A stretch of 62,170 nt of DNA from a virus. The notes beneath the pieces were generated by a model that did no database searches, had not been told where the DNA came from, and was given only the letters and a program-made list of their open reading frames with translations. The stretch's first letter is position 1. The number at the start of each line of letters is the position of its first letter. Of this stretch, positions 6,591 to 50,965 are shown one piece after another. The translations under genes and the position numbers were made by a program. The DNA lies in the IMG/VR virus record IMGVR_UViG_3300046557_000378. One strand, 5' to 3'.

Positions 6591-6605
6591 CGACTCCATC
6601 CCACT

Positions 6606-7615: not shown

Positions 7616-7628
7616 CGTTAAGAGCTTC

Positions 7629-7689
7629 GTAAGACGACTGACGGAGCTGCCTCATAGCGTGTTGTGGTGGTCGACATAATGCCTATACT
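7629..7689 (+). promoter_or_regulatory. early promoter/operator module 1 (palindrome variant + TTGTGG-N16-TATACT, GGTCGACATAA in spacer)
   Basis: GTAAGACGACTGAC 7629-7642; TTGTGG 7662-7667; TATACT 7684-7689, 6 nt before ATG 7696 (leaderless). Confidence 0.55.
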
Positions 7690-7695
7690 CCGGCC

Positions 7696-8322
7696 ATGCC
7701 GACCTCACCCGGCCCGCTACTGCAAGCGCTCGTCGACCTATGGGATCGACTACAAGCCGAAGTACCGGAGCTACCACGTATAACCCCTGTCGTCTCCCCG
7801 ACGACCAGGAGGAAAGACCACGGCCCCGAGAGGTGGAGGAGAGACGCCGACGGATCCGTATCGGGTCTCGTCATCACCGCTGACGTCCTGCATGAGGGCG
7901 CTGAAGCCACCCTCGTAATGGTCCTGCACGACGCTGCCCACATCCTCAACTGGACCCGCGACGTGCAAGACACAACGATGCGGGGCGTCTACCACAATCA
8001 GAGATTCCTGACGGCCGCGGAGGAAGTGGGCCTCGAATGGCCTGCCCACTCAGAGCGTGCTCCGGGACAGGGGTACGTCAACCCAGTGCTTAACGCGGTC
8101 GCCCACACACGGCACAAGCCTGATCTACAGAGGCTGACGGAGGTCATCCCGGAAATCCTCCCGCACCTGGAGGTTCCCGCGTCCTCCAGCGCCGGCCGCG
8201 TCGACCGGTTGACGTTGAAGTGCGGGTGCAAGCCAGCACGGTCCTTCCGCATCTCCAGAACGGTTGCTGCTCAAGGGCCGATCACGTGCAACGTGTGCGA
8301 CACCGAGTTCACCTCTGAATGA
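7696..8322 (+). CDS. hypothetical protein with HDAAH metallopeptidase-like motif and C-terminal Cys4 zinc-ribbon-like end
   Basis: 208 aa; VLHDAAHIL; LKCGC...ITCNVC; first gene after early promoter. Confidence 0.65.
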   Translation: MPTSPGPLLQALVDLWDRLQAEVPELPRITPVVSPTTRRKDHGPERWRRDADGSVSGLVITADVLHEGAEATLVMVLHDAAHILNWTRDVQDTTMRGVYHNQRFLTAAEEVGLEWPAHSERAPGQGYVNPVLNAVAHTRHKPDLQRLTEVIPEILPHLEVPASSSAGRVDRLTLKCGCKPARSFRISRTVAAQGPITCNVCDTEFTSE

Positions 8323-8412
8323 TCACCACGGCTACCGTGCGGTAAGGTCTGTCGAAAGTCAGTGATTGACGGTACTGTGCGTGCGGTAGCCGTGTGCCCT
8401 AGAGAGGTCAGG

Positions 8413-9180
8413 ATGAGCCGTAAGGACGTCGCCCGAGCGGGGCAAGGCATCGTGGCTGGCATCAAAGACGTCGCCCTGCCGGCGCTGGACCTCGACGAGA
8501 TCGAGAACGAGCCTGAAGGCGCGCTCATCGCGCGAGGTGCTGCCTACGCTCGTGAGTATGCGGCGATCGAGGACAAGCCGACGATCCTGGCAATGAACAT
8601 CGCCACCGTGCTACTCGCGATCAGGAAACAGCACGACGACTGGCTAGGCAGATCTCATGAGTACCGTCTGGTAGCAGCAGAGGTCTACGCACAGGCCAAC
8701 ATCCCGGATGACGCCAGAAAGCGACTTCAAGGCGCAGTCAGATACCACGTCGGAAACATGCTCCGTCGGTACCTGACCCCCCGTGAACTGAAGTCACTGG
8801 AGCTGCTGGACACGTCCCCGCTGGAGCGTCAGCAAGACAACCGAGCGACGAACTCAGTGCTCCTGTCTGCGATGCGGGTAAGCGCAGAGGTTGAGGCGTC
8901 AACTCCGAAGCGCGCCCCGGCGCCGGCGAAGGGGAAGGCGACGTCGAAGGAGACGGTCCCCGAACAAGGAGGGGGCGCAGGCCTCGTCGTCAAGGCGACT
9001 GCCGATCACCTCCGCCTGGCACACGCCGCATCCAACATCCTCGGGCAGCTCAACGCCAGCGTCATCGACGAGCACATGACCGACGGACAGCGCGCCAAAC
9101 TTGACGAGGAGCTAGCGGAGGTCGAACGCGTGACCCGTCGGCTACGTCGGATGCTGAAAAGGGCCGGTTCAGAGGCCTGA
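8413..9180 (+). CDS. hypothetical protein
   Basis: ATG 8413 in frame within track ORF 8362-9180, preceded by GAGAGG; helical, Lys/Ala/Pro-rich linker. Confidence 0.6.
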   Translation: MSRKDVARAGQGIVAGIKDVALPALDLDEIENEPEGALIARGAAYAREYAAIEDKPTILAMNIATVLLAIRKQHDDWLGRSHEYRLVAAEVYAQANIPDDARKRLQGAVRYHVGNMLRRYLTPRELKSLELLDTSPLERQQDNRATNSVLLSAMRVSAEVEASTPKRAPAPAKGKATSKETVPEQGGGAGLVVKATADHLRLAHAASNILGQLNASVIDEHMTDGQRAKLDEELAEVERVTRRLRRMLKRAGSEA

Positions 9181-23024: not shown

Positions 23025-25538
23025 TTGCGACTGACGGAGATTCTGGGGCGGCTCGAAGGAGTTGAGGAGGATCATGACGGCTATCTCGCGCTCTGCCCCG
23101 CGCACCGGGACCGGAACCACCCGTCGCTGAAGCTGACACTGAAGGAGGGCGGAAAGCTTCTGCTCGTCTGCCGTACGGGATGCGTGCAGTCTGACGTACT
23201 GCTGAAGATGGATCTCCGTCCGTCCGACCTCTTCGACGTCGACGGCGAGGGCGTGAAGACCGTCAGCGCGAGGGCTCCGGAGACGATCGGCCCTGGAGAG
23301 ATCGCGGGACTTCGAGTCGCCGTTGACCAGTGGGTGAGCGCGCTTCAGCACCAGGGAATGGGGGCAGGGTTCGCCGATGCCGCGCGGCAGTACGCCGCGG
23401 ACCGGTTCGGCCTGTCTGCGGAGCAGTGTGCCGAACTCCTCGTCGGCCTCTCCACCCCCGCAGAGCAGTCGTGGCCGTGGCTCTCACGTGGCTTCACACG
23501 GTACCCCCGCCTAACCGTCCCGTTGGTTGGCTTCGACGGTGTGGTCCGCGGCCTACAGGGGCGCGACCTGTCGGGGAAGTGTCCGGCCCGTTGGGTCTCC
23601 CTGACCAATGTGGAGGGGCGGACGTGGGCGAAGTACGGCGTCCTCTCCGCAGGCGCCGGCTATGACACGATCCTTGTGACCGAAGGTCCCGGCGACGGAC
23701 TGACCTCCGTCGGTGTCGGCTACGACGCGCTCGTCATCCGTGGCGCCGGGCTCGCCCGTAACGCCGCCCTCGTCGCGGAACTGGTTACTCACCTACGAGG
23801 CCGTGACGTCGTCCTGGCCTTCGACCCTGACGACGCTGGCGCGCGAGGTATTGGCGCCCTGGCGACGGCGCTTGTGGAGGACGGGAACCACCCTCGTCAG
23901 CTCCCGTTCCCCAACGCGGGGGAGGATCTGACGGACTGGCGTACGCGGGACCCGGAGGCGTTTCCCGCGGACCTGCACCGCGCTGTCCGTGCGGCGTCGG
24001 TGGTTGATCTGGAGGTCGGTAAGCCCGCAGCTTCCGCGTCAACTTCCGCTCCGTCGACGGAGGTTGACGTCCCTGACACGGACACCGCACTTCAGGGCAT
24101 GAGCGCTTCCTCGCGCGAGATGTTCGATCTGACGGACGTCGGCCTTGCCGTGCGCCTGCGCGACTATATGCGGAGCCAGGGCGGGGGAGTGCGCTACGCG
24201 CGAGGGCTCGGGTTCCTCGTATGGGACGGAACGATCTGGACGCAGACGACGGACGCTGTACGCGAGGCGCTGCACCGCATGGGCGCAGAGATGATCGCGG
24301 ACGGCAGCGACTTCGAGCGGAAGCTTGCGTTGAAGGCTCTGACCAACCGGCACATCGACGGCATCTTGAAGGAGCTTCCGTCGGTGCCCGGAGTTCCCGC
24401 CCGCGCTGACGCGTTCGACGCCTGTCCGGAGCTGCTCACAGTGGCCAACGGAACGGTGAACCTGCGCACAGGGCAGATTCACCCGCACACCCCTGCGGAC
24501 ATGATCACGAAGCGTCTCGACGTCGCGTACGACTCCACAGCGGAGGCGACGAGGTGGGAGAAGTTCCTTGAGGAGATCTTCCCCAACCACCCCGAGCTGC
24601 CCTCGTACATGCGGCGGTTGGTCGGCTACGGAGTCACCGGATCGACGGCTGAACAGTGCTTCGCCTTCCTCCACGGCCAGGGCGCGAACGGGAAGTCGGT
24701 GTTCCTGGACGCCCTACTCCACGTGTTCAAGGGCGTCACGAAGTCGACGGAGTTCTCCACCTTCGAGCAGCGCGTGAACGTCGGGCAGGCGAGCCCCGAA
24801 CTGGCGTCGCTCCGTGGCGCTCGACTGGTCACAGCGTCGGAGACGGAGAAGTACAGCCGCCTCGCGGAGGCACTGGTCAAGCAGCTAACAGGCGGGGATC
24901 CGGTGACATGCCGGTTCCTCAATCAGAACCCGTTCACCTACGTCCCGCGGTTCCTATTGATGGTGGCCGGCAACTACAAGCCCGCCATCCTGTCGCAGGA
25001 TCTCGGGGTCTGGCGACGGGTCAAGCTCGTTCCCTTCGAGGCCACCTTCCGCGGCGCGAAGGCGGATACCTCACTGCCCGCGACCCTGCGGGACGAGGCG
25101 GAGGGCATTCTCGCGTGGGCCGTGCGCGGCGCGCAGGAGTGGTACGAGCACGGACTCCAGGAGCCCGGCTCCGTCGCCACGGCCACGCAGGACTACCGCG
25201 AATCGGAAGACCGTCTCGCGGAGTTCATCACCGCGCGCCTCGTCCAGGAGCCCGCCGTCCGCGTCGCCCCCATGGCGGTCCGGCGTGCCTACGCCGAGTG
25301 GGCGGAGGACGCAGGCCTGAGCCGCAAGGAGGTGCTCTCCGGATGGGCTCTTGGCGTCGAACTGGAGTCGCGAGGCTTCACGAAGGACAAGCGCCGGAGC
25401 AAGTGGGGTTTCAACGGGATCCGCCTCATGACCGACGAGGAGGCACAGACCGCGCGGGCAGCGGAGACAGAGGCACCCACTGACGAGCCTGACCCGTCGG
25501 CAGACATCTTCGGACAGCAGCGAGAGGAGGCAGCGTGA
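23025..25538 (+). CDS. DNA primase/helicase (zinc-binding N-terminus, Toprim, D5/P4-type SF3 NTPase)
   Basis: 837 aa; CPAHRD...CRTGC; ILVTEGPGDG...AFDPDDAG; Walker A GQGANGKS; TTG start after GAGGGGAGAG. Confidence 0.85.
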   Translation: MRLTEILGRLEGVEEDHDGYLALCPAHRDRNHPSLKLTLKEGGKLLLVCRTGCVQSDVLLKMDLRPSDLFDVDGEGVKTVSARAPETIGPGEIAGLRVAVDQWVSALQHQGMGAGFADAARQYAADRFGLSAEQCAELLVGLSTPAEQSWPWLSRGFTRYPRLTVPLVGFDGVVRGLQGRDLSGKCPARWVSLTNVEGRTWAKYGVLSAGAGYDTILVTEGPGDGLTSVGVGYDALVIRGAGLARNAALVAELVTHLRGRDVVLAFDPDDAGARGIGALATALVEDGNHPRQLPFPNAGEDLTDWRTRDPEAFPADLHRAVRAASVVDLEVGKPAASASTSAPSTEVDVPDTDTALQGMSASSREMFDLTDVGLAVRLRDYMRSQGGGVRYARGLGFLVWDGTIWTQTTDAVREALHRMGAEMIADGSDFERKLALKALTNRHIDGILKELPSVPGVPARADAFDACPELLTVANGTVNLRTGQIHPHTPADMITKRLDVAYDSTAEATRWEKFLEEIFPNHPELPSYMRRLVGYGVTGSTAEQCFAFLHGQGANGKSVFLDALLHVFKGVTKSTEFSTFEQRVNVGQASPELASLRGARLVTASETEKYSRLAEALVKQLTGGDPVTCRFLNQNPFTYVPRFLLMVAGNYKPAILSQDLGVWRRVKLVPFEATFRGAKADTSLPATLRDEAEGILAWAVRGAQEWYEHGLQEPGSVATATQDYRESEDRLAEFITARLVQEPAVRVAPMAVRRAYAEWAEDAGLSRKEVLSGWALGVELESRGFTKDKRRSKWGFNGIRLMTDEEAQTARAAETEAPTDEPDPSADIFGQQREEAA

Positions 25539-27454: not shown

Positions 27455-27861
27455 GGCCTGCGCGTCTCGTGCCCCCAACGGCGGGACGTGCTACCGCAGT
27501 TGGCCGCACGGTGGCGGGAATTCGCCCCTCTGCCGTGCGTGTCGCACCTCGTCCCATGCGCATCACACCGTCTCTTCGTCCCCCGGAGCCCCCGCTGTAC
27601 CCCTCCCGTCGTGACGTTCTGCGACGGTGGGAGGAGTTGGAGGTGTGGTCCTGTGCCTACTGTGACTGCGCTTTCAACAAAAAGGTTGTACCGGAGGTGG
27701 ACCACGTTCGTCCGCTTGCGAAGGGCGGTCTTCACGAGTGGTCCAACTTCGCCCCGGCGTGCGCCTGGTGCAACCGCACGAAGGGTGATCAGGATGTTGT
27801 CAAATGGCTGGTCAAAACCACTGGTGAGAGTCTCACCGTGGAGCGCGCAGCGGACACGTAG
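27451..27861 (+). CDS. HNH endonuclease
   Basis: ATGA overlap with polymerase stop; CAYCDC...VDHVRPLAKGG...N..PAC.WCN. Confidence 0.8.
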   Translation: MRPARLVPPTAGRATAVGRTVAGIRPSAVRVAPRPMRITPSLRPPEPPLYPSRRDVLRRWEELEVWSCAYCDCAFNKKVVPEVDHVRPLAKGGLHEWSNFAPACAWCNRTKGDQDVVKWLVKTTGESLTVERAADT

Positions 27862-27944
27862 CGGTACACCGCACCGAGTCAACGTGCTTCACACTCTCTT
27901 CACTATGTAACGAATTAATTACGTCGAATCGCTCACGTCCCGGC

Positions 27945-27990
27945 TATGTCGACCGACATAACCCCAGGTGAGATTGGGTGGTCGACATAA
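27945..27990. promoter_or_regulatory. operator cluster: 16-bp dyad TATGTCGACCGACATA plus GGTCGACATAA
   Basis: Read directly in the AT-richer intergenic region 27862-28130. Confidence 0.5.
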
Positions 27991-28130
27991 CCCGGTCGCG
28001 TGCTCCGTATCGCCAAAGCGGACGTAGTTACCCATATGGGGCCGGATAGCGGAGCTGATCCGGCCGCTTGCTCATTGCCTGTGGAGGATGCGTGACTTAC
28101 AGTCCTGATCACGTCGCAGACGGACGGCGA

Positions 28131-28439
28131 ATGACCGAATTTCTTGACGCGCTTGATCGTGCGTCAGCTGAGGTCCGGCAGTTCGTCAACGCCTACGGCG
28201 ACGCAGTGACCATGCCGGGACGTCGTCCCGATGTGGATGCGGACGGAACCGGCCGGCAGGCGACGCACGGACCATCCCGCCCGACGGAGCTTGTGGCCCT
28301 AGACCTCGGTCGCGGAGCGCTCCAAGCAGAACTGAATAACGGCGTCAAGTGGCTGCCCTACGCGATAGCGGCAGTTCAAGGCGTCGCCGCATCCATGGAT
28401 CGCGCGCTCGCCCGATGGGAGGGGGAGGACGTGGCCTGA
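28131..28439 (+). CDS. hypothetical protein
   Basis: ATG 28131 in frame in track ORF 28068-28439. Confidence 0.5.
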   Translation: MTEFLDALDRASAEVRQFVNAYGDAVTMPGRRPDVDADGTGRQATHGPSRPTELVALDLGRGALQAELNNGVKWLPYAIAAVQGVAASMDRALARWEGEDVA

Positions 28440-28457
28440 ACAGTCCGGGGGGACGGG

Positions 28458-28679
28458 TTGATCATCATCACGGGGCCGCAAGCCACTGACGATGAAGTCG
28501 GGGATGTAGAAGAGATGGCGGCTTTGCTCGGGGCGCTGCCTGCCTACAGCGCCGCGATTCAGTGGGCGACGGTAACCGCCCTGTACTGCCTGGCCGGTTG
28601 GGAGACGTGCTCCCTGGCCGTGGCCGATGTTGCCGTGGCCGACGCACTCGGCCTGACGGTCCGGCACCTGCCTGTCTGA
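28458..28679 (+). CDS. hypothetical protein
   Basis: 73 aa; TTG start; acidic N-terminus, hydrophobic C-terminal half. Confidence 0.45.
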   Translation: MIIITGPQATDDEVGDVEEMAALLGALPAYSAAIQWATVTALYCLAGWETCSLAVADVAVADALGLTVRHLPV

Positions 28680-28684
28680 CCTCC

Positions 28685-28737
28685 GCTAGTCGACTGACGA
28701 AGCCCCCGTTCCTGCACGGGACGGGGGCTTTCGTTTG
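28685..28737 (+). terminator. palindrome variant GCTAGTCGACTGAC (28685-28698) followed by intrinsic terminator (28700-28737)
   Basis: AAGCCCCCGT-11 nt-ACGGGGGCTT then TCGTTT. Confidence 0.65.
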
Positions 28738-28771
28738 CCCAAATCACTGCGTGACCCAGGTCACTTACGAT

Positions 28772-28805
28772 CCCGCGTCACAACTAGCTCAGATTCCCCC
28801 ATTAC
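28772..28805 (+). promoter_or_regulatory. phage-specific promoter-like motif, copy 4 (upstream of sigma gene)
   Basis: CCCGCGTCACA-N11-TTCCCCCATTAC; 34 nt before ATG 28839. Confidence 0.5.
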
Positions 28806-28838
28806 CTCAGTACGCAAGGCACACACGGAGGAGACGGC

Positions 28839-29630
28839 ATGAACCGCATCGAGGTCACGGACGAGCAGATCCTTGCCGCACAGACGGGCGACGGTGACGC
28901 CATGTGGGACATCGTCCAGTCGTTCGACCCCATGCTGAAGAGCATCATCCGCAGCGCCGCCCCGAGCGCCAGCGCGGAGGACGCGGAGGATCACCTCCAA
29001 GAGGGACGCGCGGTATTGATCCAGCACATTCGCGACTACGACTCGTCGTCCTCGTCGGCTCAACTCTCCTCCTACGTCTACCGTGCTGTGCGCCGCGCCA
29101 TCGCGGAGGCGGACGTCGTGTCGAAGACTCCACTCACCATTGACGCAACGGCGGCGCTCCGTGTGCGCTGGGCGCTGTGGGAGTGCGGGGGAGACACCGA
29201 GCGGGCGTGGGCGACGTTCCGTGACGCGACGTCGCCGACGAAACGGATGAGCCGGGAACTGTTCATCGCGATGGTGGAGGCACTCGCCGGTACGGAGAGT
29301 CTGGACAGTCCGTTCGCGGGATCGCTTACCAGGCGTGCGGGCGCGATGGAGCGGGACAACGGCCTGACGCTCGCCGACGTCCTGGAAGACCGGGCGACGT
29401 CGGTCACCGACCCCCTGGAGCGCCGCGACCTCGCACGCTGGCTCATGACGCAGATCCCGCAACGTCAGTCACTCGCACTCCGCGCTTTCTACGGCGTCGG
29501 CATGACTCGCATGACCGACCCGGAACTGTGCGCGGACCTGGAGGTCAACGGCGTCGCCCTCCGACGGCTCCGCTCCCGCGGAGTGGCCTCCGCCCGCACC
29601 GTGGCCGACGCTCACGACCTTGCTGCGTAA
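28839..29630 (+). CDS. sigma-70-family RNA polymerase sigma factor (group-3-like)
   Basis: 263 aa; region-2-like DAMWDIVQSFDPMLKSII...EDHLQEGRAVLIQHIRDYD...SYVYRAVRRAI; region-4-like IPQRQSLALRAFYGVGMTRMTDPELCADLEVNGVALRRLRSRG. Confidence 0.7.
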   Translation: MNRIEVTDEQILAAQTGDGDAMWDIVQSFDPMLKSIIRSAAPSASAEDAEDHLQEGRAVLIQHIRDYDSSSSSAQLSSYVYRAVRRAIAEADVVSKTPLTIDATAALRVRWALWECGGDTERAWATFRDATSPTKRMSRELFIAMVEALAGTESLDSPFAGSLTRRAGAMERDNGLTLADVLEDRATSVTDPLERRDLARWLMTQIPQRQSLALRAFYGVGMTRMTDPELCADLEVNGVALRRLRSRGVASARTVADAHDLAA

Positions 29631-29664
29631 GACATTAACCATCATCTGACCTGGAGTTACGACC

Positions 29665-29811
29665 ATGAAGCGACTTCCTTCCCTCGACGACTACGACGTC
29701 GACGGTGTCCGCCTCGACGAGGCCGCCCTCTGGGGTGACGACATCAGGTACGCGGTGGAGGCCCGGAACGACTCAATGCCTCTCGACGGTTTCTCCGTCG
29801 AATCGCTCTGA
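29665..29811 (+). CDS. hypothetical acidic protein (48 aa, below track cutoff)
   Basis: ATG 34 nt after sigma stop; Asp-rich; ends 10 nt before operator 29822. Confidence 0.4.
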   Translation: MKRLPSLDDYDVDGVRLDEAALWGDDIRYAVEARNDSMPLDGFSVESL

Positions 29812-29821
29812 CCCACCCTCC

Positions 29822-29835
29822 GTCAAACGACTGAC
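29822..29835. promoter_or_regulatory. palindrome variant GTCAAACGACTGAC
   Basis: 28 nt before ATG 29863. Confidence 0.55.
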
Positions 29836-29862
29836 GCAGCTACAAGACACGAGGAGAGCCCC

Positions 29863-30330
29863 ATGGAGTTCACGCTGAAGTGCAAGCTCGACAGCAACGA
29901 GCGCGACCGCATCGAAGTCTCACGCGACTACGACGGCGACATCCGGTTCTACGCCCCCGCCAACAACACGGTGTTCACCGACGACTCCGGGGCGCGCGAG
30001 TTCGCCCGGAAGATCCTCGCGCTCGTCGGGGACGAGGCGCCGGAGGCGGAGCCGCTCAAGGTCGGTGACCTGGTGGAGGTCACCGTCGACCGTCACCACG
30101 ACACATCGGACGTCGGCAAGCGCGGGCGGCTGACGCGGATCGACACGGATGACGTCCCATACGGCGTCACCCTGGACAACGGCGCCTTCATCTGGGTCAC
30201 GGACGTCCGTAAGGTGCCGCCGACGGTCTCGTCCACCCGGTCCACCCTTCTCGCCGAAGCCCGCCGCGAGGCAGGTACCGGCGCCTCGCCGGCCGACGTT
30301 CTGGCGTACGCGAAGTTCCTGTCCGAGTAG
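29863..30330 (+). CDS. hypothetical protein with one KVGD SH3/KOW-like module (family member 3)
   Basis: 155 aa; LKVGDLVEVTV...; N-terminal domain shared with 30379 ORF. Confidence 0.65.
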   Translation: MEFTLKCKLDSNERDRIEVSRDYDGDIRFYAPANNTVFTDDSGAREFARKILALVGDEAPEAEPLKVGDLVEVTVDRHHDTSDVGKRGRLTRIDTDDVPYGVTLDNGAFIWVTDVRKVPPTVSSTRSTLLAEARREAGTGASPADVLAYAKFLSE

Positions 30331-30334
30331 CTCC

Positions 30335-30348
30335 GTCAGTCGACTGAC
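30335..30348. promoter_or_regulatory. perfect palindrome GTCAGTCGACTGAC
   Basis: 5 nt after stop 30328-30330, 31 nt before ATG 30379. Confidence 0.6.
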
Positions 30349-30378
30349 GCACCGCAAGACATCAACAGAGGAGAGAAC

Positions 30379-30951
30379 ATGACCGAGTACACGATCCGAT
30401 GCAACTCCGGTGTCAGCGACGTCATCATCGCCTACCGGGAGTCTGGCAGCGACTCCGTGAAGCTGAAGGGCACGCGTAGCGGAGAGTTCGCCATCGACGC
30501 GTACGCCACCCCGGACACCGCCCGCACATTCGCCCGCGGCATCCTCGCCCTGGCCGACGAGATCGACGGGGGAGAGGTTGCGGAGGCGGCCCCTCCCGCG
30601 CGTACCCCGGTGGTCGGCGACAAGGTCCGCGTCGCCGAAGACGACGCATTCAACCGGAGGGGCGAGTTCGTCGGCCTGGTCGGGACGCTGAAGGAGATCC
30701 GCTCCAGCGCCCGCCGGCTCCCGTACTACGTCGAGTTCGGCACCGGATCCGGGAAGCACGGCGACTCCGTGAACGGATCGTGGTACTGCGCGAGGGTCGA
30801 ACTCGTCGACGAGCCGGATACTGCCCCGGACCCGGAGCCGTCCCTCAGCGTGCGCGGTGAGTTCGTGGTGGAGGCTCAGGCGCTGCTCGTCGGCAAGGAG
30901 TACACGGCCATGGACCTCGTCACCGTGGCGGCGTTCCTGTCGGCGCCGTAG
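30379..30951 (+). CDS. hypothetical protein with one VVGD SH3/KOW-like module (family member 4)
   Basis: 190 aa; VVGDKVRVAEDDAFNRRGEFVG... matches module 3 of 19011 ORF. Confidence 0.65.
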   Translation: MTEYTIRCNSGVSDVIIAYRESGSDSVKLKGTRSGEFAIDAYATPDTARTFARGILALADEIDGGEVAEAAPPARTPVVGDKVRVAEDDAFNRRGEFVGLVGTLKEIRSSARRLPYYVEFGTGSGKHGDSVNGSWYCARVELVDEPDTAPDPEPSLSVRGEFVVEAQALLVGKEYTAMDLVTVAAFLSAP

Positions 30952-30955
30952 CTCC

Positions 30956-31024
30956 GTCAAACGACTGACGGAGGAAGTTTCTCCACGAACCATGTTGTGG
31001 TGGTCGACATAACTGTGCCATAGT
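30956..31024 (+). promoter_or_regulatory. early promoter/operator module 2
   Basis: GTCAAACGACTGAC 30956-30969; TTGTGG 30995-31000; N18 with GGTCGACATAA; CATAGT 31019-31024. Confidence 0.5.
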
Positions 31025-31088
31025 CGACCCCGCAAGGCACTGACGGAGAGGGGCGCTCCACACGGGGCGCCCCAGGGGAGGGGACGAG

Positions 31089-31400
31089 ATGGCCACCATC
31101 ACCGATTGGTCGGGCAAGGAAGTCACTGGCGTTCTTTCCGACGTCCCCGCCAAGTGGGCGTCTGTGAACGTGAGGGACGCGGGCTTCTCGCACTACGAGG
31201 CTGGCGGTGACCTGATCCGGGCGCGCGTCGAGTACAGCCACAAGCGCGGTTACTGGATCTGGGAGCTGTACTCGGGGTGCAGGTACGTGCCTGTTGACGA
31301 CAACGAGTACCGCACTCCCAAGACCTGTACCACGGCGCTCCAGGCTATTCGCGCCGTACAGCGCGCTGCCCGGAAGCACCGTGTAGCGCAGTACTTCTAG
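31089..31400 (+). CDS. hypothetical protein
   Basis: 103 aa; first six codons (MATITD) duplicated at 33138. Confidence 0.6.
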   Translation: MATITDWSGKEVTGVLSDVPAKWASVNVRDAGFSHYEAGGDLIRARVEYSHKRGYWIWELYSGCRYVPVDDNEYRTPKTCTTALQAIRAVQRAARKHRVAQYF

Positions 31401-31471
31401 CCGAAACGTCCTCCGGGGCGTCCGCGGGGCATGGCCTACCCGCGTTGAAGAGGCAGGCCGTTGGAGGGGAA

Positions 31472-31687
31472 ATGCGCGTCACTGGACGTTGGATCGACGA
31501 GGACGACAAGAACGGTCGGATGCCTGGAAAGTTCGGTACCGCTGAGGAGGCTGAGGACGCCGCCCGGAAGTTCATGGAGGGACACCCCACCGTGACCAGG
31601 GTGTCGATCAGCCACGAAACGGGCGGATGGCTCACCGACGTGGACCGAAGCGGAAAGTCGTCGCACGGGTGGCGTGCGAACCCCTGA
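31472..31687 (+). CDS. hypothetical protein
   Basis: ATG 31472 after GGAGGGG; in frame in track ORF 31445-31687. Confidence 0.5.
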   Translation: MRVTGRWIDEDDKNGRMPGKFGTAEEAEDAARKFMEGHPTVTRVSISHETGGWLTDVDRSGKSSHGWRANP

Positions 31688-31693
31688 ACCCCC

Positions 31694-31767
31694 GCCCCCA
31701 TAGGCAAGCCCGTCGACCTGGTACCCCCAGTGCCGGCGGGCGCGCGGTTCGAATCCGCGGCGGGGCA
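31694..31767 (+). pseudogene. tRNA remnant: intact T arm and 3' acceptor strand, degenerate 5' two-thirds
   Basis: CGCGG-TTCGAAT-CCGCG then GCGGGGC-A; 5' strand pairs 5/7; no D or anticodon arm can be drawn. Confidence 0.6.
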
Positions 31768-31802
31768 CGCGAAGCACCACACCCTGATTGAAAGTAGGAG
31801 CC

Positions 31803-32423
31803 ATGCCTCGACCCTCCCGCGCGCCGCTCATCGGAAGCCTCGCCCTGGCGGCAGTCGCCACGGCCGCAGCCATGTCGACGGTCCTGTCCGTCGCCTCCGA
31901 CGCGCAGGCGCCGGGTAACCCGCGCCTGTCCGACGTCACCACGGCGCCCGTCGTGACGCCCTCCCCGGTCGCTCCGTCGCCCTACCGCCCGACGCCGCAC
32001 ACGTCGCGTGAGGGGGAGCGCAAGGCACTGCCGCCGTCCTCCATCCTGCGCCTCACCACTCAGTCGACGAGGCCGGCGACGCCGCACCCCGTCGCGACGC
32101 CTCCGGCGGACATCAGGATCACCTACTACCGCGACTGCTCAGGGAACCCCCAGCCGTGCGTGGACGCGGGTTCCCTGACGCAGTACGCGGGACGGATCCT
32201 CGCCGGCCACAACTACATGGGCTACCAGTGGCTTTCCCGAGTCCCCGTCGGCCGCACGGTCCGCGTCATCTCCGGTCCACTCGCCGGGACGTACAAGGTC
32301 TACGGGCACCTGACCATCGGGCGCCAGGGCGGAGCCATCCCGAACTTCCCGGGGTCGCCGTCGCTGGTGCTTCAGACCTGCGAGGGAAGCGGGACGGGGT
32401 TCACGCTGCTGCACCGGGCGTAG
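31803..32423 (+). CDS. secreted sortase-like (class E/F-type fold) protein, tentative
   Basis: Signal-like N-terminus (LIGSLALAAVATAAAMSTVLSVASDAQA), Pro-rich linker, ILAGH...VGRTVRV...YKVYGH...LVLQTCEG...R matching the His/TLxTC/Arg layout. Confidence 0.45.
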   Translation: MPRPSRAPLIGSLALAAVATAAAMSTVLSVASDAQAPGNPRLSDVTTAPVVTPSPVAPSPYRPTPHTSREGERKALPPSSILRLTTQSTRPATPHPVATPPADIRITYYRDCSGNPQPCVDAGSLTQYAGRILAGHNYMGYQWLSRVPVGRTVRVISGPLAGTYKVYGHLTIGRQGGAIPNFPGSPSLVLQTCEGSGTGFTLLHRA

Positions 32424-32432
32424 CACCACAAG

Positions 32433-32636
32433 TCACTTACGTCGCCAACGGAAGATTGACTCAAGCAGTCCTCGGTAGAAGTAGGTCAGTGCGCGGATGA
32501 TGTCGGGGCGAGCGGCCTCCGACGTGCCACGGACACCGATGCGTAGGGTGATGATGCCGCCCACTATCACGACGACAACGAGGGCTAGCAGGTAGAGGGG
32601 CGCGACAGCCCATGGAACGACGCTGGCGTACGACAT
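32433..32636 (-). CDS. small membrane protein
   Basis: 67 aa; TM PWAVAPLYLLALVVVVIVGGIITL; GAGAGGAG RBS 4 nt upstream of ATG. Confidence 0.6.
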   Translation of the reverse strand: MSYASVVPWAVAPLYLLALVVVVIVGGIITLRIGVRGTSEAARPDIIRALTYFYRGLLESIFRWRRK

Positions 32637-33006
32637 GCGTCTCCTCTCAAAGTTGCTGCCTTCGAGAGGTCACCGCCCTGTGACGGTGCTTCAACCTCAA
32701 CGAAGGACAGGTTTTCCTGTCGACACGGCGCCCGCTTACCGTGCTCCGCCGGAGCGGATGTTTCGTTGAGGTCGTGTGCGCGACCTTCGGTACTGCATAG
32801 CGGGCGGGATAGCCGTCGGCTGGTAAGGCCGTCAGTGCCATCCCATACAGGGCATTCAGAAGCCCCAGCATCCTGTGGGGCAATGCCCCTGCAGGACGGA
32901 ATACGTGAGTGCGGCACCTCGGCGGCGGCGCCTCTTGTCTGTCGCGCAGGACGGTACACCACACATCGTCAGCCGCGCCAACTAGCTTGAGAGAACGGGA
33001 GTTGAA
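32637..33006 (-). other. highly structured untranslated region (candidate long 5' leader or ncRNA)
   Basis: No credible ORF; RBS-occluding hairpin 32643-32669; 79-nt cloverleaf 32694-32772 closed by an 11-bp helix; nested helices 32848-32891; TTCAAC-N16-TAGTTG promoter-like on minus strand at 33006-32979. Confidence 0.4.
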
Positions 33007-33038
33007 GGTGTAGGAGGCCGCGACGACGGCAGGGCTCC

Positions 33039-33101
33039 GTCAAACGACTGACGTTACTTCCCCTAAGGGTATTGTGGTGGTCGACATAACTGTGCCATAG
33101 T
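33039..33101 (+). promoter_or_regulatory. early promoter/operator module 3
   Basis: GTCAAACGACTGAC 33039-33052; TTGTGG 33072-33077; CATAGT 33096-33101. Confidence 0.5.
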
Positions 33102-33137
33102 GAGGGCAACGCAAGGGACTGACGAATGGGACGCAAA

Positions 33138-33350
33138 ATGGCCACCATCACCGACACTCAGATAGTTCGCATCGACACCGCCAACGACGAGCGTCGCAGC
33201 GTCTTCAGCATCCTGGTGGACGGTGGCTTTGACCCCGACGGCATCCGCCACGGCATCCGCGCTTCCGCGGGCCGTATTTGCCCCGCCCACTGCATCACCT
33301 GCCGCAACAACCGCGCTCACGCCAGCTGCGTTGGCTGCCCCGACTGCTAA
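33138..33350 (+). CDS. small Cys-rich protein
   Basis: 70 aa; C-terminal CPAHCITC...C.GCPDC (7 Cys in 24 aa). Confidence 0.55.
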   Translation: MATITDTQIVRIDTANDERRSVFSILVDGGFDPDGIRHGIRASAGRICPAHCITCRNNRAHASCVGCPDC

Positions 33351-33363
33351 ACCGAGCCACCCC

Positions 33364-33397
33364 GGAGCCCCTGTCAATTTCCGGCGACAGGGGCTCC
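33364..33397 (+). terminator. 12-bp stem-loop (no T-run)
   Basis: GGAGCCCCTGTC-10 nt-GACAGGGGCTCC. Confidence 0.5.
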
Positions 33398-33441
33398 ACA
33401 GCACCCCCAACTCACACACCACGCACACGAACTGAGGAGCC

Positions 33442-34089
33442 ATGAGAGCCAACCTGCGGGATCCACTCCTGATTCAGGCCGTCATAGCCGCAGCCCTCTC
33501 CTTCGCGCACATCCACGACATCGCGGACGCCGCGGGGCAGCACGGGTGGAAGGCATGGGCGTACCCGATCAGCGTCGACCTCCTCTTGGTCATGGCCTGG
33601 AAGCAGATCCGGGAGGCCGCGGAGGGTGAGTCGAAGCGCGCGCCGTGGGTGTGGTTCCTCCTGTCCATGGCCGCGTCGATCGGGGCGAACATTGCGACGG
33701 CCGGCGTCCTCGACCTGGAGCATCCCCCGACGATCCTCCGCGTCCTCGTCGCCGGCTGGCCCGTGCTCGCGTTCTTTGGTGGCTCGTTGCTCGTCCACTC
33801 GCGCAAGCCACGCACGGATGGGTCGCAGGAGGCCGCTGGAGAGCCTGCGGGGGATCAGGTGGAGGAAGTGGTCCCGGAGCCCGTGAAAGTTACCCCTGCG
33901 CGCGTCCTGGTGTCGTACAAGGAGGCTGCCGACGTCCTGGGCGTGGCCGTCGAAACGGTGCGAGGCGCGGCGAACGGATCGAACCCCCGACTGATGAAGT
34001 ACCCGGCGCCGGATGACCCCCGAGCCGTCCGCGTCGACCTGAGCGAGGCCCGTAGGGTCATCAACAACCGTCGCCCCGTGGCTGGGTAA
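33442..34089 (+). CDS. DUF2637-like membrane protein with C-terminal excisionase/MerR-type HTH
   Basis: 215 aa; 4 TM N-terminal half (AALSFAHIHDIA...AYPISVDLLLV); C-terminal VSYKEAADVLGVAVETVRGAA. Confidence 0.6.
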   Translation: MRANLRDPLLIQAVIAAALSFAHIHDIADAAGQHGWKAWAYPISVDLLLVMAWKQIREAAEGESKRAPWVWFLLSMAASIGANIATAGVLDLEHPPTILRVLVAGWPVLAFFGGSLLVHSRKPRTDGSQEAAGEPAGDQVEEVVPEPVKVTPARVLVSYKEAADVLGVAVETVRGAANGSNPRLMKYPAPDDPRAVRVDLSEARRVINNRRPVAG

Positions 34090-34168
34090 AGCAGTTTTAA
34101 AAGACCATAGACATCCTGTGCTCCGGCCTAGGCGTTTCGTGACGCTTATGCCACCATAATTCCTGAGT

Positions 34169-34345
34169 ATGCCCTCTGAGAAGCGTAGCGGAGACGCCGC
34201 AACCTCCGCCCCCATAAAAGCCGCCGTTGACCTGCGGATTGGGGGAGTGCGCCTCACTGTTCAGCGAGTGCCTCCATGGCTCTTAGCCCTTCCGGCTTCG
34301 GTTATCGGTTCGGGCGCGGGCATGGCTTGGTGGACCCACCGATGA
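34169..34345 (+). CDS. small membrane-anchored protein (58 aa, below track cutoff), paralog of 41905-42063
   Basis: DLRIGGVRLTVQRVP...WW aligns with ELRIGGFRVTAERIP...WW. Confidence 0.5.
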   Translation: MPSEKRSGDAATSAPIKAAVDLRIGGVRLTVQRVPPWLLALPASVIGSGAGMAWWTHR

Positions 34346-34411
34346 CACCACGAGTTCCCGTCGACCACATCGGCGGGGGCTTCGCCATGTCCGGACGTAG
34401 GATCCTGCCAC

Positions 34412-34669
34412 GTGGCCGATATTTCGTTCGATGACCTGATCAACCTGGAGCGTGACGCCGTCGAGGCGTACGAGGTGGCGCGGACGCTGGACTACTCCGC
34501 GGAGGCGTGGAAGCCGTGGCTGGACGCTGCCGCAGCCTTCCATGCGGCTGTCACCGCGTACGCCAAGCAGGAGGGGAAGGACCGGATGTCGGTCGAGATG
34601 GACGTGAAGAAGACCGTCCGTCACCCGGCGCCGACAGAACCGCTCGTGTCCAGTGATAGCCCAGACTGA
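34412..34669 (+). CDS. hypothetical protein
   Basis: 85 aa; GTG start; helical. Confidence 0.5.
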   Translation: MADISFDDLINLERDAVEAYEVARTLDYSAEAWKPWLDAAAAFHAAVTAYAKQEGKDRMSVEMDVKKTVRHPAPTEPLVSSDSPD

Positions 34670-41127: not shown

Positions 41128-41157
41128 ATCACTACCGCGTCACACTTCCCCCATAAC
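41128..41157 (+). promoter_or_regulatory. phage-specific promoter-like motif, copy 5 (spacer 10 bp shorter)
   Basis: CCGCGTCACA-c-TTCCCCCATAAC; an alternative -35-like ATCACT lies 18 nt upstream of CATAAC. Confidence 0.4.
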
Positions 41158-47166: not shown

Positions 47167-48681
47167 GTGCCTATCGATGCTACGAAGGTCGAGTCTCCCG
47201 GCTGGTGGCTTCAGCGGCTCGGTAAGAAGCTGCTCGACGAGCGTGACGACTGCCGTGACGCTGACGGGGAGACGGAGCCAGGCCTCAACACGCTGCGGCG
47301 CTACGCGGAGAACAAGGCCCCGCTGCCGCACGTCCCCGGCATCGACCCCGCGGAGATCGCGGAATGGATGAAGGACGCGCGCACCAACTGGACGTCACTC
47401 GTCATCGACTCCCCGGTTGAGCGCATGCACGTCGACGGATTCCGCTTCGGATCGCCCTCTGACGGCGACACTGCGCAGGCCGCGGACGACGACGCCAACC
47501 GCATATGGCAGGAGAACAGCCTCGACGCGGATGCCGACCTAGTCCACTACGGAGCCCTGTCCCAGCGACGGGCGTTCGTCATGGTGGAGGAGGAAGCCGG
47601 GCGCCCGGTCCTGACCCACGAGTCGCCACGCCAGGTGGCTGTGGAGCACGTCCAGGGCAGCCGGCGGAAGTTGGCCGCGGGCTTGAAGATGTGGCGCGAC
47701 GACTGGACTGGCGACACTCGCGCGACGCTGTGGACGCCAGAGAGTGTGTACGACTTCGTGACGAAGTCGCAGTCCCCGGTGTTCGCTGGCAACTCGGCGT
47801 CGCTCCGTGGCTGGGATGCCTTCGCGCTCCCCAGCTCGACGGACGGCACACGGGCCAACCTGTTGCGTGCGGTCCCTATCGTCCCCTTCATCAACCGGCG
47901 CAACCGACGGCTGATGGGCTTCGCGGAGCACGAAGACGTGCTGACGATTCAGAACCGGATCACGCTCTCGCTGATCAACCTGATTGCCGCCATGAAGTAC
48001 GGCGCATTCAGGCAGCGTTACGCGTCGGGCCTGGAGGTCGACGAGGACCCGATCACGGGTAAGAAGCTCACGCCCTACAAGCTCGACATCAAGAGTCTGT
48101 GGACGTCGGAGGACCCGGAGACGAAGTTCGGCGAGTTCGCCGCGACGGACCTCGCTCCGTACGTGCGCGCAGTCGAATCCGCGGTACAGGATCTCGCGGC
48201 CATCAGTCGCACGCCTCCGCACTACCTGATCGGCGCTGTAGTCAACGTCTCCGGCGACGCTCTGAAGGCAGCGGAGACAGGGCTCGTCAGCAAGGTCCGG
48301 GATCGTCAGCGCACCTTCGGCGAGTCCTGGGAACAGACGATGAGATTGGCGTTCCGTGTCCTAGGGGACGAGGCGAAGGCCACGGCGTACACCGCCGAAA
48401 CCCTCTGGCGTGACCCCGAATCCCGCTCCATCAGTGAACTCGCGGACGCTGCTGTGAAGGCGGAGGCCGCGGGCGTTCCCTGGCGTCAGCGCATGGAGGA
48501 CATGGGCTACACGCCCGCACAGATCGCGCGGATGGAGATCGACCGCGCGGCGGACGCGATCACCGCGCAGGCTGCCGCGGACGCTGCGGCCCCACAGCCG
48601 ACGTCCCTGGACGCTGCCCGTGCGGCACGCGATCAGCGGACCGTGATCGGACGAGGCGCCAATGCCCCTGTCGCCGCTTGA
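47167..48681 (+). CDS. portal protein
   Basis: 504 aa directly after terminase. Confidence 0.85.
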   Translation: MPIDATKVESPGWWLQRLGKKLLDERDDCRDADGETEPGLNTLRRYAENKAPLPHVPGIDPAEIAEWMKDARTNWTSLVIDSPVERMHVDGFRFGSPSDGDTAQAADDDANRIWQENSLDADADLVHYGALSQRRAFVMVEEEAGRPVLTHESPRQVAVEHVQGSRRKLAAGLKMWRDDWTGDTRATLWTPESVYDFVTKSQSPVFAGNSASLRGWDAFALPSSTDGTRANLLRAVPIVPFINRRNRRLMGFAEHEDVLTIQNRITLSLINLIAAMKYGAFRQRYASGLEVDEDPITGKKLTPYKLDIKSLWTSEDPETKFGEFAATDLAPYVRAVESAVQDLAAISRTPPHYLIGAVVNVSGDALKAAETGLVSKVRDRQRTFGESWEQTMRLAFRVLGDEAKATAYTAETLWRDPESRSISELADAAVKAEAAGVPWRQRMEDMGYTPAQIARMEIDRAADAITAQAAADAAAPQPTSLDAARAARDQRTVIGRGANAPVAA

Positions 48682-50275: not shown

Positions 50276-50965
50276 ATGCAGCTTCCGCACTCCTTCGCGC
50301 TCTCGCGCGCCCCGTACACGATCCTCGGCTACCGCAAGGACGGCCGTCCGATCCGCTTCATCGGAGGTGGCGACGGCACAGGCGACGGCACGGGTACCGG
50401 CTCCACGGGCGCTGGCGACGGTACGGCCCTCAACGAGCACGGCTATCCAGACGGTAAGCCCGTCGCGGAGATGACGTCGGAACAACAGGTCGCCTACTGG
50501 AAGCACCACGCGCGCAAGCACGAGCAGCGCGCCAACTCGGGTCCCGACGCCACGGAGCTGGAGCGCCTGAAGGTCCGTGACGCGGCGCTGAAGAAGATCG
50601 AGGACGAGAAGCTCACCGCGGACGAGCGAGCGGCGCAGGAGCGTCGGGCACTGGCGGCAGCACGGGACACCGCCACCTCAACCGCAACGACGCTGACCGA
50701 CGAGAACACCCGCCTCAAGGTCGCCCTGGCGAAGGGCCTGACTCTGGCGCAGGCGAACCGGCTGAGCGGCTCCACGCAGGCGGAGTTGGAGGCCGACGCG
50801 GATGCCTATCTCGCGGAGGTCGGCCAGACCGGCACCCAGACCGGAGGTAACTCCGGCGGAGGTGCTCAGCGCTCCGGCGGCAACCGCGGAGGCGACGTCG
50901 ACGGCGGAGCCAAGACCGTGGCGGCCGGCGCGGACCTCTACAAGCAGCGCCACGCGAAGCAGTAA
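50276..50965 (+). CDS. scaffolding protein
   Basis: 229 aa; Gly/Asp/Thr-rich then long Ala/Glu/Arg coiled coil; between MuF and capsid genes. Confidence 0.7.
   Translation: MQLPHSFALSRAPYTILGYRKDGRPIRFIGGGDGTGDGTGTGSTGAGDGTALNEHGYPDGKPVAEMTSEQQVAYWKHHARKHEQRANSGPDATELERLKVRDAALKKIEDEKLTADERAAQERRALAAARDTATSTATTLTDENTRLKVALAKGLTLAQANRLSGSTQAELEADADAYLAEVGQTGTQTGGNSGGGAQRSGGNRGGDVDGGAKTVAAGADLYKQRHAKQ

Follow-up and report, generated by a model that had tools for sequence, protein, structure and literature searches.

What distinguishes the control region of a transcription unit from the end of a mobile piece of DNA, when the same sequence blocks occur twice within a short distance? This question is raised by the 62,170-nucleotide virus record IMGVR_UViG_3300046557_000378 of IMG/VR, a high-GC Streptomyces phage-like sequence that, at its full length, is referred to here as the window. 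Two of its segments, 30951-31105 and 33035-33154, resemble each other and run into the first codons of two small genes, and an initial annotation had interpreted them both as host-type early promoters embedded in operators and as direct repeats that bracket a 2-kb cassette. We followed up this interpretation using the sequence itself, related genomes and the published RNA sequencing (RNA-seq) data of the relative Samy. The segments, together with a third copy elsewhere in the window, do not mark the borders of a special mobile cassette but are modules of a well-conserved regulatory element, which belongs to a further operator/promoter network of the phiC31 type. Taking the full account together, we consider it likely that each module is a composite control element of a Samy-like, phiC31-type temperate Streptomyces phage lineage, in which promoters read by the host are combined with operators of the phage repressor.

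Three modules of the window share one architecture

An 18-mer starting with TTGTGG and ending with GGTCGACATAA occurs exactly at 7662, 30995 and 33072, as compared to ~0.01 matches expected by chance. Each exact copy has a palindrome 17-23 bp upstream and a -10-like hexamer downstream (TATACT at 7684, CATAGT at 31019 and 33096), leaving a -35/-10 spacer of 16 bp at 7662 and of 18 bp at 30995 and 33072. The proposal that three modules share one architecture is thus borne out, and so is the description of the two neighbouring copies as mosaic direct repeats. Comparing their segments, we found 20 identical nt (beginning at 30951 and 33034), a 43-nt block of 86% identity that includes 30 identical nt, and 17 identical nt at the start codons of both downstream open reading frames (ORFs; 31089 and 33138). 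For the second ORF, the leader alignment with relatives favours the annotated MATITD start at 33138, though the longest reading frame begins at 33126. A mirrored arrangement noted at 31001-31030 does exist as a 7-nt inverted repeat, but it is confined to this one copy and missing in the positional orthologues.

The promoter block is conserved across a phage lineage

The nearest deposited phage is Streptomyces phage Samy, with patchy identity of 77-79%, and no other near relative was found among deposited phages. Further relatives, the provirus G001 and four viral contigs, were retrieved from IMG/VR via the sigma-factor protein, allowing us to align 24 modules from seven phages (the window, Samy and five IMG/VR contigs). 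A -35-region block of 14 bp, which starts with GTTGTGG, is nearly invariant in this alignment, and its TTGT, GTGG and CG positions are fully so. The -10 element follows the pattern NATNNT, and every one of the 24 modules has A2 and T6, as expected for A-11 and T-7, while T at position 1 is seen only in two copies that precede a repressor operon. In nearly all lytic copies, a TG lies 1 nt 5' of the hexamer (-15/-14), giving the spacer and TGn motif of an extended -10 promoter, and downstream of the -10 element the modules continue into a conserved leader. The Samy block has lost one G and gained one base before the -10 element, compensating indels that leave the frame between the start of TTGT and the last base of the -10 hexamer at 30 bp. 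Samy carries the motif at five sites, all intergenic and all co-directional with the genes. Being common to related phages, the module is best regarded as an ordinary regulatory feature.

Outside this lineage, searching genome contigs with the 14-mer of the motif returned scattered single matches in unrelated taxa, none of which had the full block among the matches listed. Scanning 401 genomes of the class with the 14-bp block gave single matches in 64, one of which was inspected and sits in a coding region; the sample thus holds no multi-copy prophage relatives and no sign of a host regulon. To our knowledge, none of the DasR, AdpA, LexA, PHO and RecA-NDp motifs, compared by eye, fits the block in both sequence and spacing.

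Palindromic sites upstream of the promoters are predicted repressor operators

The palindrome variants that had been noted upstream of each module are confirmed at 7627, 30954 and 33037 and belong to a family of at least eight sites in the window, as compared to 0.15 expected. Samy has 11 such sites, which are near-identical, intergenic and numerous in the manner of the conserved inverted repeats (CIRs) of phiC31. Between phages, the palindromes vary and fall into three main versions, the promoter remaining unchanged and the distance between palindrome and block ranging from 4 to 23 bp; the cross-phage consensus is a perfect palindrome. Such variation looks like that of heteroimmune repressor/operator pairs. 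The site at 7627-7644 precedes an operon of a SprT-like gene and a putative immunity repressor, a layout that recurs in Samy at 24787 and places one copy where an autoregulatory operator would be expected. The ORF at 8362-9180 shares 63% identity with SAMYPH_32, the putative immunity repressor of Samy annotated as related to phiC31 c, and has no match in Pfam or PHROG. Judged from these features, the 18-20 bp palindrome, which differs per immunity group, is most likely the operator of the 8362-9180 repressor.

Host RNA polymerase most likely reads the class-1 promoters

We refer to the promoter of these modules as class 1. Published transcriptomes of Samy (PMC11302927, S1 Data and S3 Table) allowed us to follow its use in a relative, as gene-level raw counts summed over seven uninduced samples. 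The phage sigma gene 68 received 5 reads in total. The module in front of the repressor operon shows a 200-fold step-up, with 33 reads for the upstream gene 30 and 16,689 for gene 31, and reads per kb rose at the other four modules (ninefold from gene 71 to 72, sevenfold from 77 to 78 and from 81 to 82, and fourfold from 84 to 85). The Samy promoter at 47410, which is the orthologue of the window promoter at 30994, shows a ninefold step-up at its first gene. In one or two of the conditions without induction, genes 72, 82 and 85 also appear in the list of most-expressed prophage genes; promoters are not discussed in that paper (PMC11302927). In the repressor-operon copy, the ATG lies 6 nt past the -10 hexamer in the window and 7 nt past it in Samy, and it lacks a Shine-Dalgarno sequence, which is the geometry of actinobacterial leaderless genes. 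Because all five Samy copies show a step-up, sigma mRNA is close to zero and the repressor-operon copy has leaderless geometry, host RNA polymerase is the most likely reader of class-1 promoters; which of its sigma factors takes part, we infer. The initial description of HrdB-like promoters therefore holds in that these are promoters, most likely read by the host enzyme and paired with an upstream repressor-type palindrome, but TTGTGG makes a poor -35 element.

From these data, we propose the following mechanism. The phage-specific palindrome would be bound by the 8362-9180 repressor, and host RNA polymerase would read the sigma-70-family promoter 4-23 bp downstream, which comprises the 14-bp block, the 30-bp frame, TGn, the A2/T6 -10 hexamer and the conserved leader. 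The copy at 7661, having the best -10 element and a short spacer, should give rise, in lysogens, to a leaderless transcript of the SprT-like and repressor genes, and it is probably subject to autoregulation. In the same cells, the copies at 30994 and 33071 would be held down by the repressor in a leaky manner, and they should fire without a phage factor once the repressor is gone.

Several points weigh against this account. TTGTGG agrees with the HrdB -35 consensus (TTGACN/TTGACA) at just 3 of 6 positions, and a simple sigma-70 consensus scan of 27500-34500 called no promoter. Moreover, a 14-bp near-invariant block exceeds the needs of a -35 element, and an extra factor may bind there. In the window, ~62-68 bp separate the operator centre from the predicted transcription start downstream of it, which is far for simple occlusion, and a direct BLASTP comparison between the 8362-9180 protein and phiC31 c gave a marginal match (E = 0.008 over 94 aa). 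Finally, the RNA-seq support consists of gene-level raw counts from a relative, and a few induced cells could contribute to the uninduced Samy counts.

Relation to known systems

In phiC31, the CIRs are reportedly bound by the repressor c and adjoin an early promoter present in multiple copies, and these early promoters are said to be phage-specific. The phiC31 record AJ006589 contains 16 CIR copies and ~10 promoter copies, some paired at ~23-40 bp (for example, the CIR at 27544 and the promoter at 27585). The window resembles phiC31 in having dispersed, near-identical intergenic palindromes, each a few tens of bp before a standardised promoter, one copy before the repressor operon, the same genome layout and a sigma-like gene. 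It differs in that all sequences are distinct and the repressor similarity is marginal. A further difference is that the window lineage has two promoter classes, of which class 1 has canonical -10 features and, in lysogens of Samy, apparently does not depend on the phage sigma.

The stoperators of cluster A mycobacteriophages, recognised by L5 gp71, reportedly keep the prophage silent by preventing initiation as well as read-through. As with stoperators, many putative repressor sites are spread over the window at gene boundaries and next to promoters; unlike the 13-bp, asymmetric and transcription-oriented L5 sites, they are 18-20 bp palindromes. The promoters themselves are similar to actinobacterial extended -10 promoters, with TGn one base upstream of an A-11/T-7 hexamer and a weak -35 element, and the repressor-operon copy, in the position of its ATG and the missing Shine-Dalgarno sequence, is similar to leaderless transcripts known from Actinobacteria and from lambda PRM/cI. 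The 14-bp near-invariant block over the -35 region sets them apart from ordinary host promoters.

The spacer box and the site at 27945-27990

The initial annotation had taken GGTCGACATAA, which spans part of the spacer, as a second operator type. The 11-mer alone has 5 matches in the window, as compared to 0.65 expected, and a copy of the whole 18-mer with 3 mismatches is found at 27973. Across the 24 modules, the idea of a separate operator was not borne out: only the GGTCGA part of GGTCGACATAA is (nearly) invariant, and it belongs to the promoter block. The CATAA part is replaced in contigs L139 and L140 and absent in L142 and L143, where the promoter is still kept, and the palindromic GTCGAC is not conserved across relatives. 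Of note, CATAAC was also considered as the true -10 element and rejected because nothing is conserved 16-18 bp upstream of it in class-1 modules.

A narrower possibility concerns the sub-lineage of the window, Samy, G001 and L139/L140, in which the spacer box CGACATAA might be the site of a second regulator that also binds at 27945-27990. Such a regulator would be compatible with host-read promoters under repressor control. Within any one genome the box does not vary, even between copies as much as 25 kb apart; it recurs at 27945-27990 as a dyad plus a second copy, a site kept in six relatives, and is also carried by the class 2 motifs of Samy, a second promoter type described below. The dyad itself had been reported as a perfect 16-bp palindrome; it is present, but as 7+2+7 with a central AC that is not self-complementary. 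Against a second regulator stand the L142/L143 promoters that lack the box, the variable spacer between module copies of L142, and the Samy box, which is displaced by 1 nt relative to both promoter elements with no visible effect. Within-genome uniformity can also result from gene conversion, and no candidate binding protein was found, an atlas search with the DUF7169 protein having given nothing. We regard a second regulator as possible but unlikely. As to the site itself, an AT-rich stretch starting at 27905, directly after the HNH/polymerase genes, runs into its boxes, and Samy gene 66, which lies downstream of the equivalent site, has 36-123 uninduced reads (PMC11302927). Possible roles of the region 27905-27990 are those of a promoter, of an iteron-bearing origin or of a regulator site.

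By analogy with sigma adaptation of the PafBC type, the 14-bp block and the lineage-specific CGACATAA box, with its dyad at 27945-27990, might together form the docking site of a conserved phage or host factor that remodels the host RNA polymerase where the -35 element of the promoter is poor. We consider this improbable; if true, a single regulon would comprise the repressor operon together with the entire accessory array, and the repressor and the factor would be its two inputs.

A phage sigma factor and a second promoter class

The window encodes a sigma-70-family protein of its own (28839-29630), as indicated by Sigma70_r2 and PHROG sigma families. A separate motif, class 2, consists of a GCGTCACA box, ~17 nt and CAT(A/T)AC, and occurs on the plus strand at 6605, 10132, 16722, 28771 and 41133, where it precedes a nucleotide kinase gene, an exonuclease operon, a recombination directionality factor (RDF)/replication operon, the sigma gene and a tRNA block, respectively. 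Samy has it at the same five sites. In the copy at 41133, the two boxes are 10 nt closer together. The first genes behind four of the five Samy class 2 promoters have 6-136 reads per kb, and gene 95, which follows the compressed copy, shows good expression (PMC11302927), possibly by read-through from the integrase gene.

Should the phage sigma read class 1 as well, the modules would be middle promoters and not host-type. Every phage with the motif also has a sigma gene, the 14-bp block is unlike the HrdB -35 consensus, the phiC31 early promoters start with a similar GGTTG..CGAC, and CATAAC in the class-1 spacer resembles the -10-like box of class 2. This assignment is difficult to reconcile with the Samy lysogens, in which transcripts step up at each of the five class-1 copies, at one of these 200-fold, while the sigma mRNA level is nearly zero. 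It is also the class 2 motif that precedes the sigma gene and the replication operons and whose box varies along with sigma, a variation that the class-1 spacer does not follow across phages, and a single sigma factor would hardly recognise -35 regions as different as those of the two classes. We therefore judge recognition of class 1 by the phage sigma to be quite improbable and retain host RNA polymerase as its reader.

Just upstream of the sigma gene's own promoter, a 14-bp inverted repeat (GTGAC..GTCAC, 28751-28764) is found in every relative examined. In Samy lysogens, reads drop ~100-fold from the gene upstream of sigma to the sigma gene. The inverted repeat is a candidate switch for sigma expression.

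Array units vary as whole pieces

In all relatives, the stretch from the sigma operon to a DUF2637 gene is an array of two to four module-headed units with very variable gene content. In the window, the array opens with the unit of the promoter at 30994 and closes with that of the promoter at 33071. The first unit is positionally conserved, sharing its leader hairpin with Samy, L142 and L143 (leader identity 92-95%) and its peptidase gene with Samy, L139 and L140. Accordingly, the interval 31089-33035 is not a single unit but the first unit plus a convergent small gene.

The repeat-bracketed cassette of the initial annotation finds weak support in this setting: gain and loss of units does take place at the family level, but the repeats are the ordinary heads of neighbouring units. 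The idea draws on the identical 20-, 30- and 17-nt blocks, which lie in direct orientation 2.08 kb apart, on the variable unit number, and on the 17-nt start-codon identity, which promoter function leaves unexplained and which is probably a short conversion or recombination patch. Among the relatives examined, however, none has a single module, and none has an empty site with its junction inside the repeat; Samy, L139 and L140 keep the peptidase unit in place together with its flanking modules. The closest pair, L139 and L140, differs by a 789-bp indel that carries a complete unit, with boundaries outside the modules, as compared to module spacings of 1038 and 1512 bp. Because the indel comprises a whole unit and matches no module spacing in length, units appear to move as whole operator-promoter-gene pieces, and a promoter-promoter crossover is not in evidence in this one resolvable indel between close relatives. 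The operator of the inserted unit (L140 13947-14736) matches the window type at 17 of 18 positions, whereas the other L140 operators are of another type, which points to whole-unit exchange between immunity groups. Given also that the interval holds two convergent units and that the stretches of identity offer little length for efficient homologous recombination, we think it very improbable that 31089-33035 enters or leaves as a cassette by recombination between duplicated promoter regions.

The units are reminiscent of morons as described by Hendrix and co-workers, being small, having their own promoter and often their own terminator, and varying between collinear relatives. They differ from morons in that most carry the standard operator/promoter of the phage and are low in lysogens, only the convergent small gene being moron-like. 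With promoters that are most likely host-read and repressor-controlled serving the repressor operon and the accessory array, and the sigma-type class 2 serving the replication and sigma genes, the modules complete a transcription map of the lineage and may explain, in a testable way, why the accessory region of a phiC31-like prophage is leaky but silent. Two attractive but unsupported ideas, the second operator type and the repeat-bracketed cassette, are thereby corrected. The modules may also be of use as compact, repressible Streptomyces promoter parts with several natural operator specificities for synthetic biology in antibiotic producers.

Genes and RNA elements of the array

Table 1. Coordinates of the modules, the array features and related sites in the window.
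Feature	Position	Strand	Remarks
Third module	7627..7689	+	operator 7627-7644; promoter 7661-7689 (TATACT); ATG 6 nt past -10; predicted leaderless
SprT-like gene (7696-8322) and putative immunity repressor (8362-9180)	7696..9180	+	phrog_6361; 63% identity to SAMYPH_32
Fourth site	27945..27990	+	two CGACATAA boxes flanking conserved 13-mer; upstream of DUF7169/sigma operon; kept in six relatives
Palindromic operator (predicted)	30951..30971	.	core 30954-30971; dispersed CIR-like family; altered palindromes at same position in relatives
Class-1 promoter, unit A	30994..31024	+	near-invariant -35-region block 30994-31007, spacer, TGn, -10 hexamer 31019-31024
Predicted 5' leader	31031..31088	+	conserved start CGCAAGGCAC, hairpin 31050-31073, then Shine-Dalgarno
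ORF, 103 aa (MATITD...)	31089..31400	+	no family; no homologue in relatives
Hammerhead type II ribozyme-like element	31399..31462	+	variant core; 30.5 bits, below gathering score of 37
ORF, 71 aa	31472..31687	+	no family
tRNA-like element	31694..31767	+	perfect T arm, acceptor 3' strand, CCC anticodon-like loop with C33, no D arm
Secreted peptidase, sortase-like per Samy annotation	31803..32423	+	phrog_17228, E = 8e-51; 62-75% identity to Samy, L139 and L140 genes
Convergent small membrane-protein gene	32433..32636	-	SAMYPH_79 homologue
Non-coding stretch	32637..33033	-	presumed promoter and leader of minus-strand gene
Palindromic operator (predicted), second copy	33034..33054	.	20-nt identity with first copy; palindrome family
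Class-1 promoter, last unit	33071..33101	+	-10 hexamer 33096-33101
ORF, 70 aa (MATITD...)	33138..33350	+	Cys-rich C-terminus; then terminator hairpin 33364-33397

In the first unit, the two small ORFs are separated by a hammerhead-like element, in whose catalytic core C3 is changed to U (Table 1). Its homologue in L143 (12601-12664) scores 40.5 bits and has a canonical core, and the same core sequence is found in L144 (11795-11862). The tRNA 3' remnant of the initial annotation is not called as a tRNA by ARAGORN anywhere in the interval, but a highly conserved tRNA-like element is present there, with 96-100% identity over 32-70 nt in six relatives, whereas the neighbouring proteins are only 35-75% identical. 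Together, the tRNA-like element and the hammerhead suggest RNA processing of the first-unit transcript.

A PDB sequence search with the peptidase gave no match. SAMYPH_79, the Samy homologue of the convergent gene, ranks with the most strongly expressed genes of the prophage in 8 of 10 conditions without induction, with 311-1149 reads (PMC11302927), and judged from this expression the window gene is a putative lysogen-expressed moron. The region 32431-32796 aligns to Samy 50358-50716 with 74% identity, and it contains a 68-nt core that is kept at 90% identity in both Samy and G001. The terminator hairpin behind the last ORF has a 12-bp stem and recurs at the ends of three Samy units (50318, 51984 and 52846); as it closes several array units, these have standard tails as well as standard heads.

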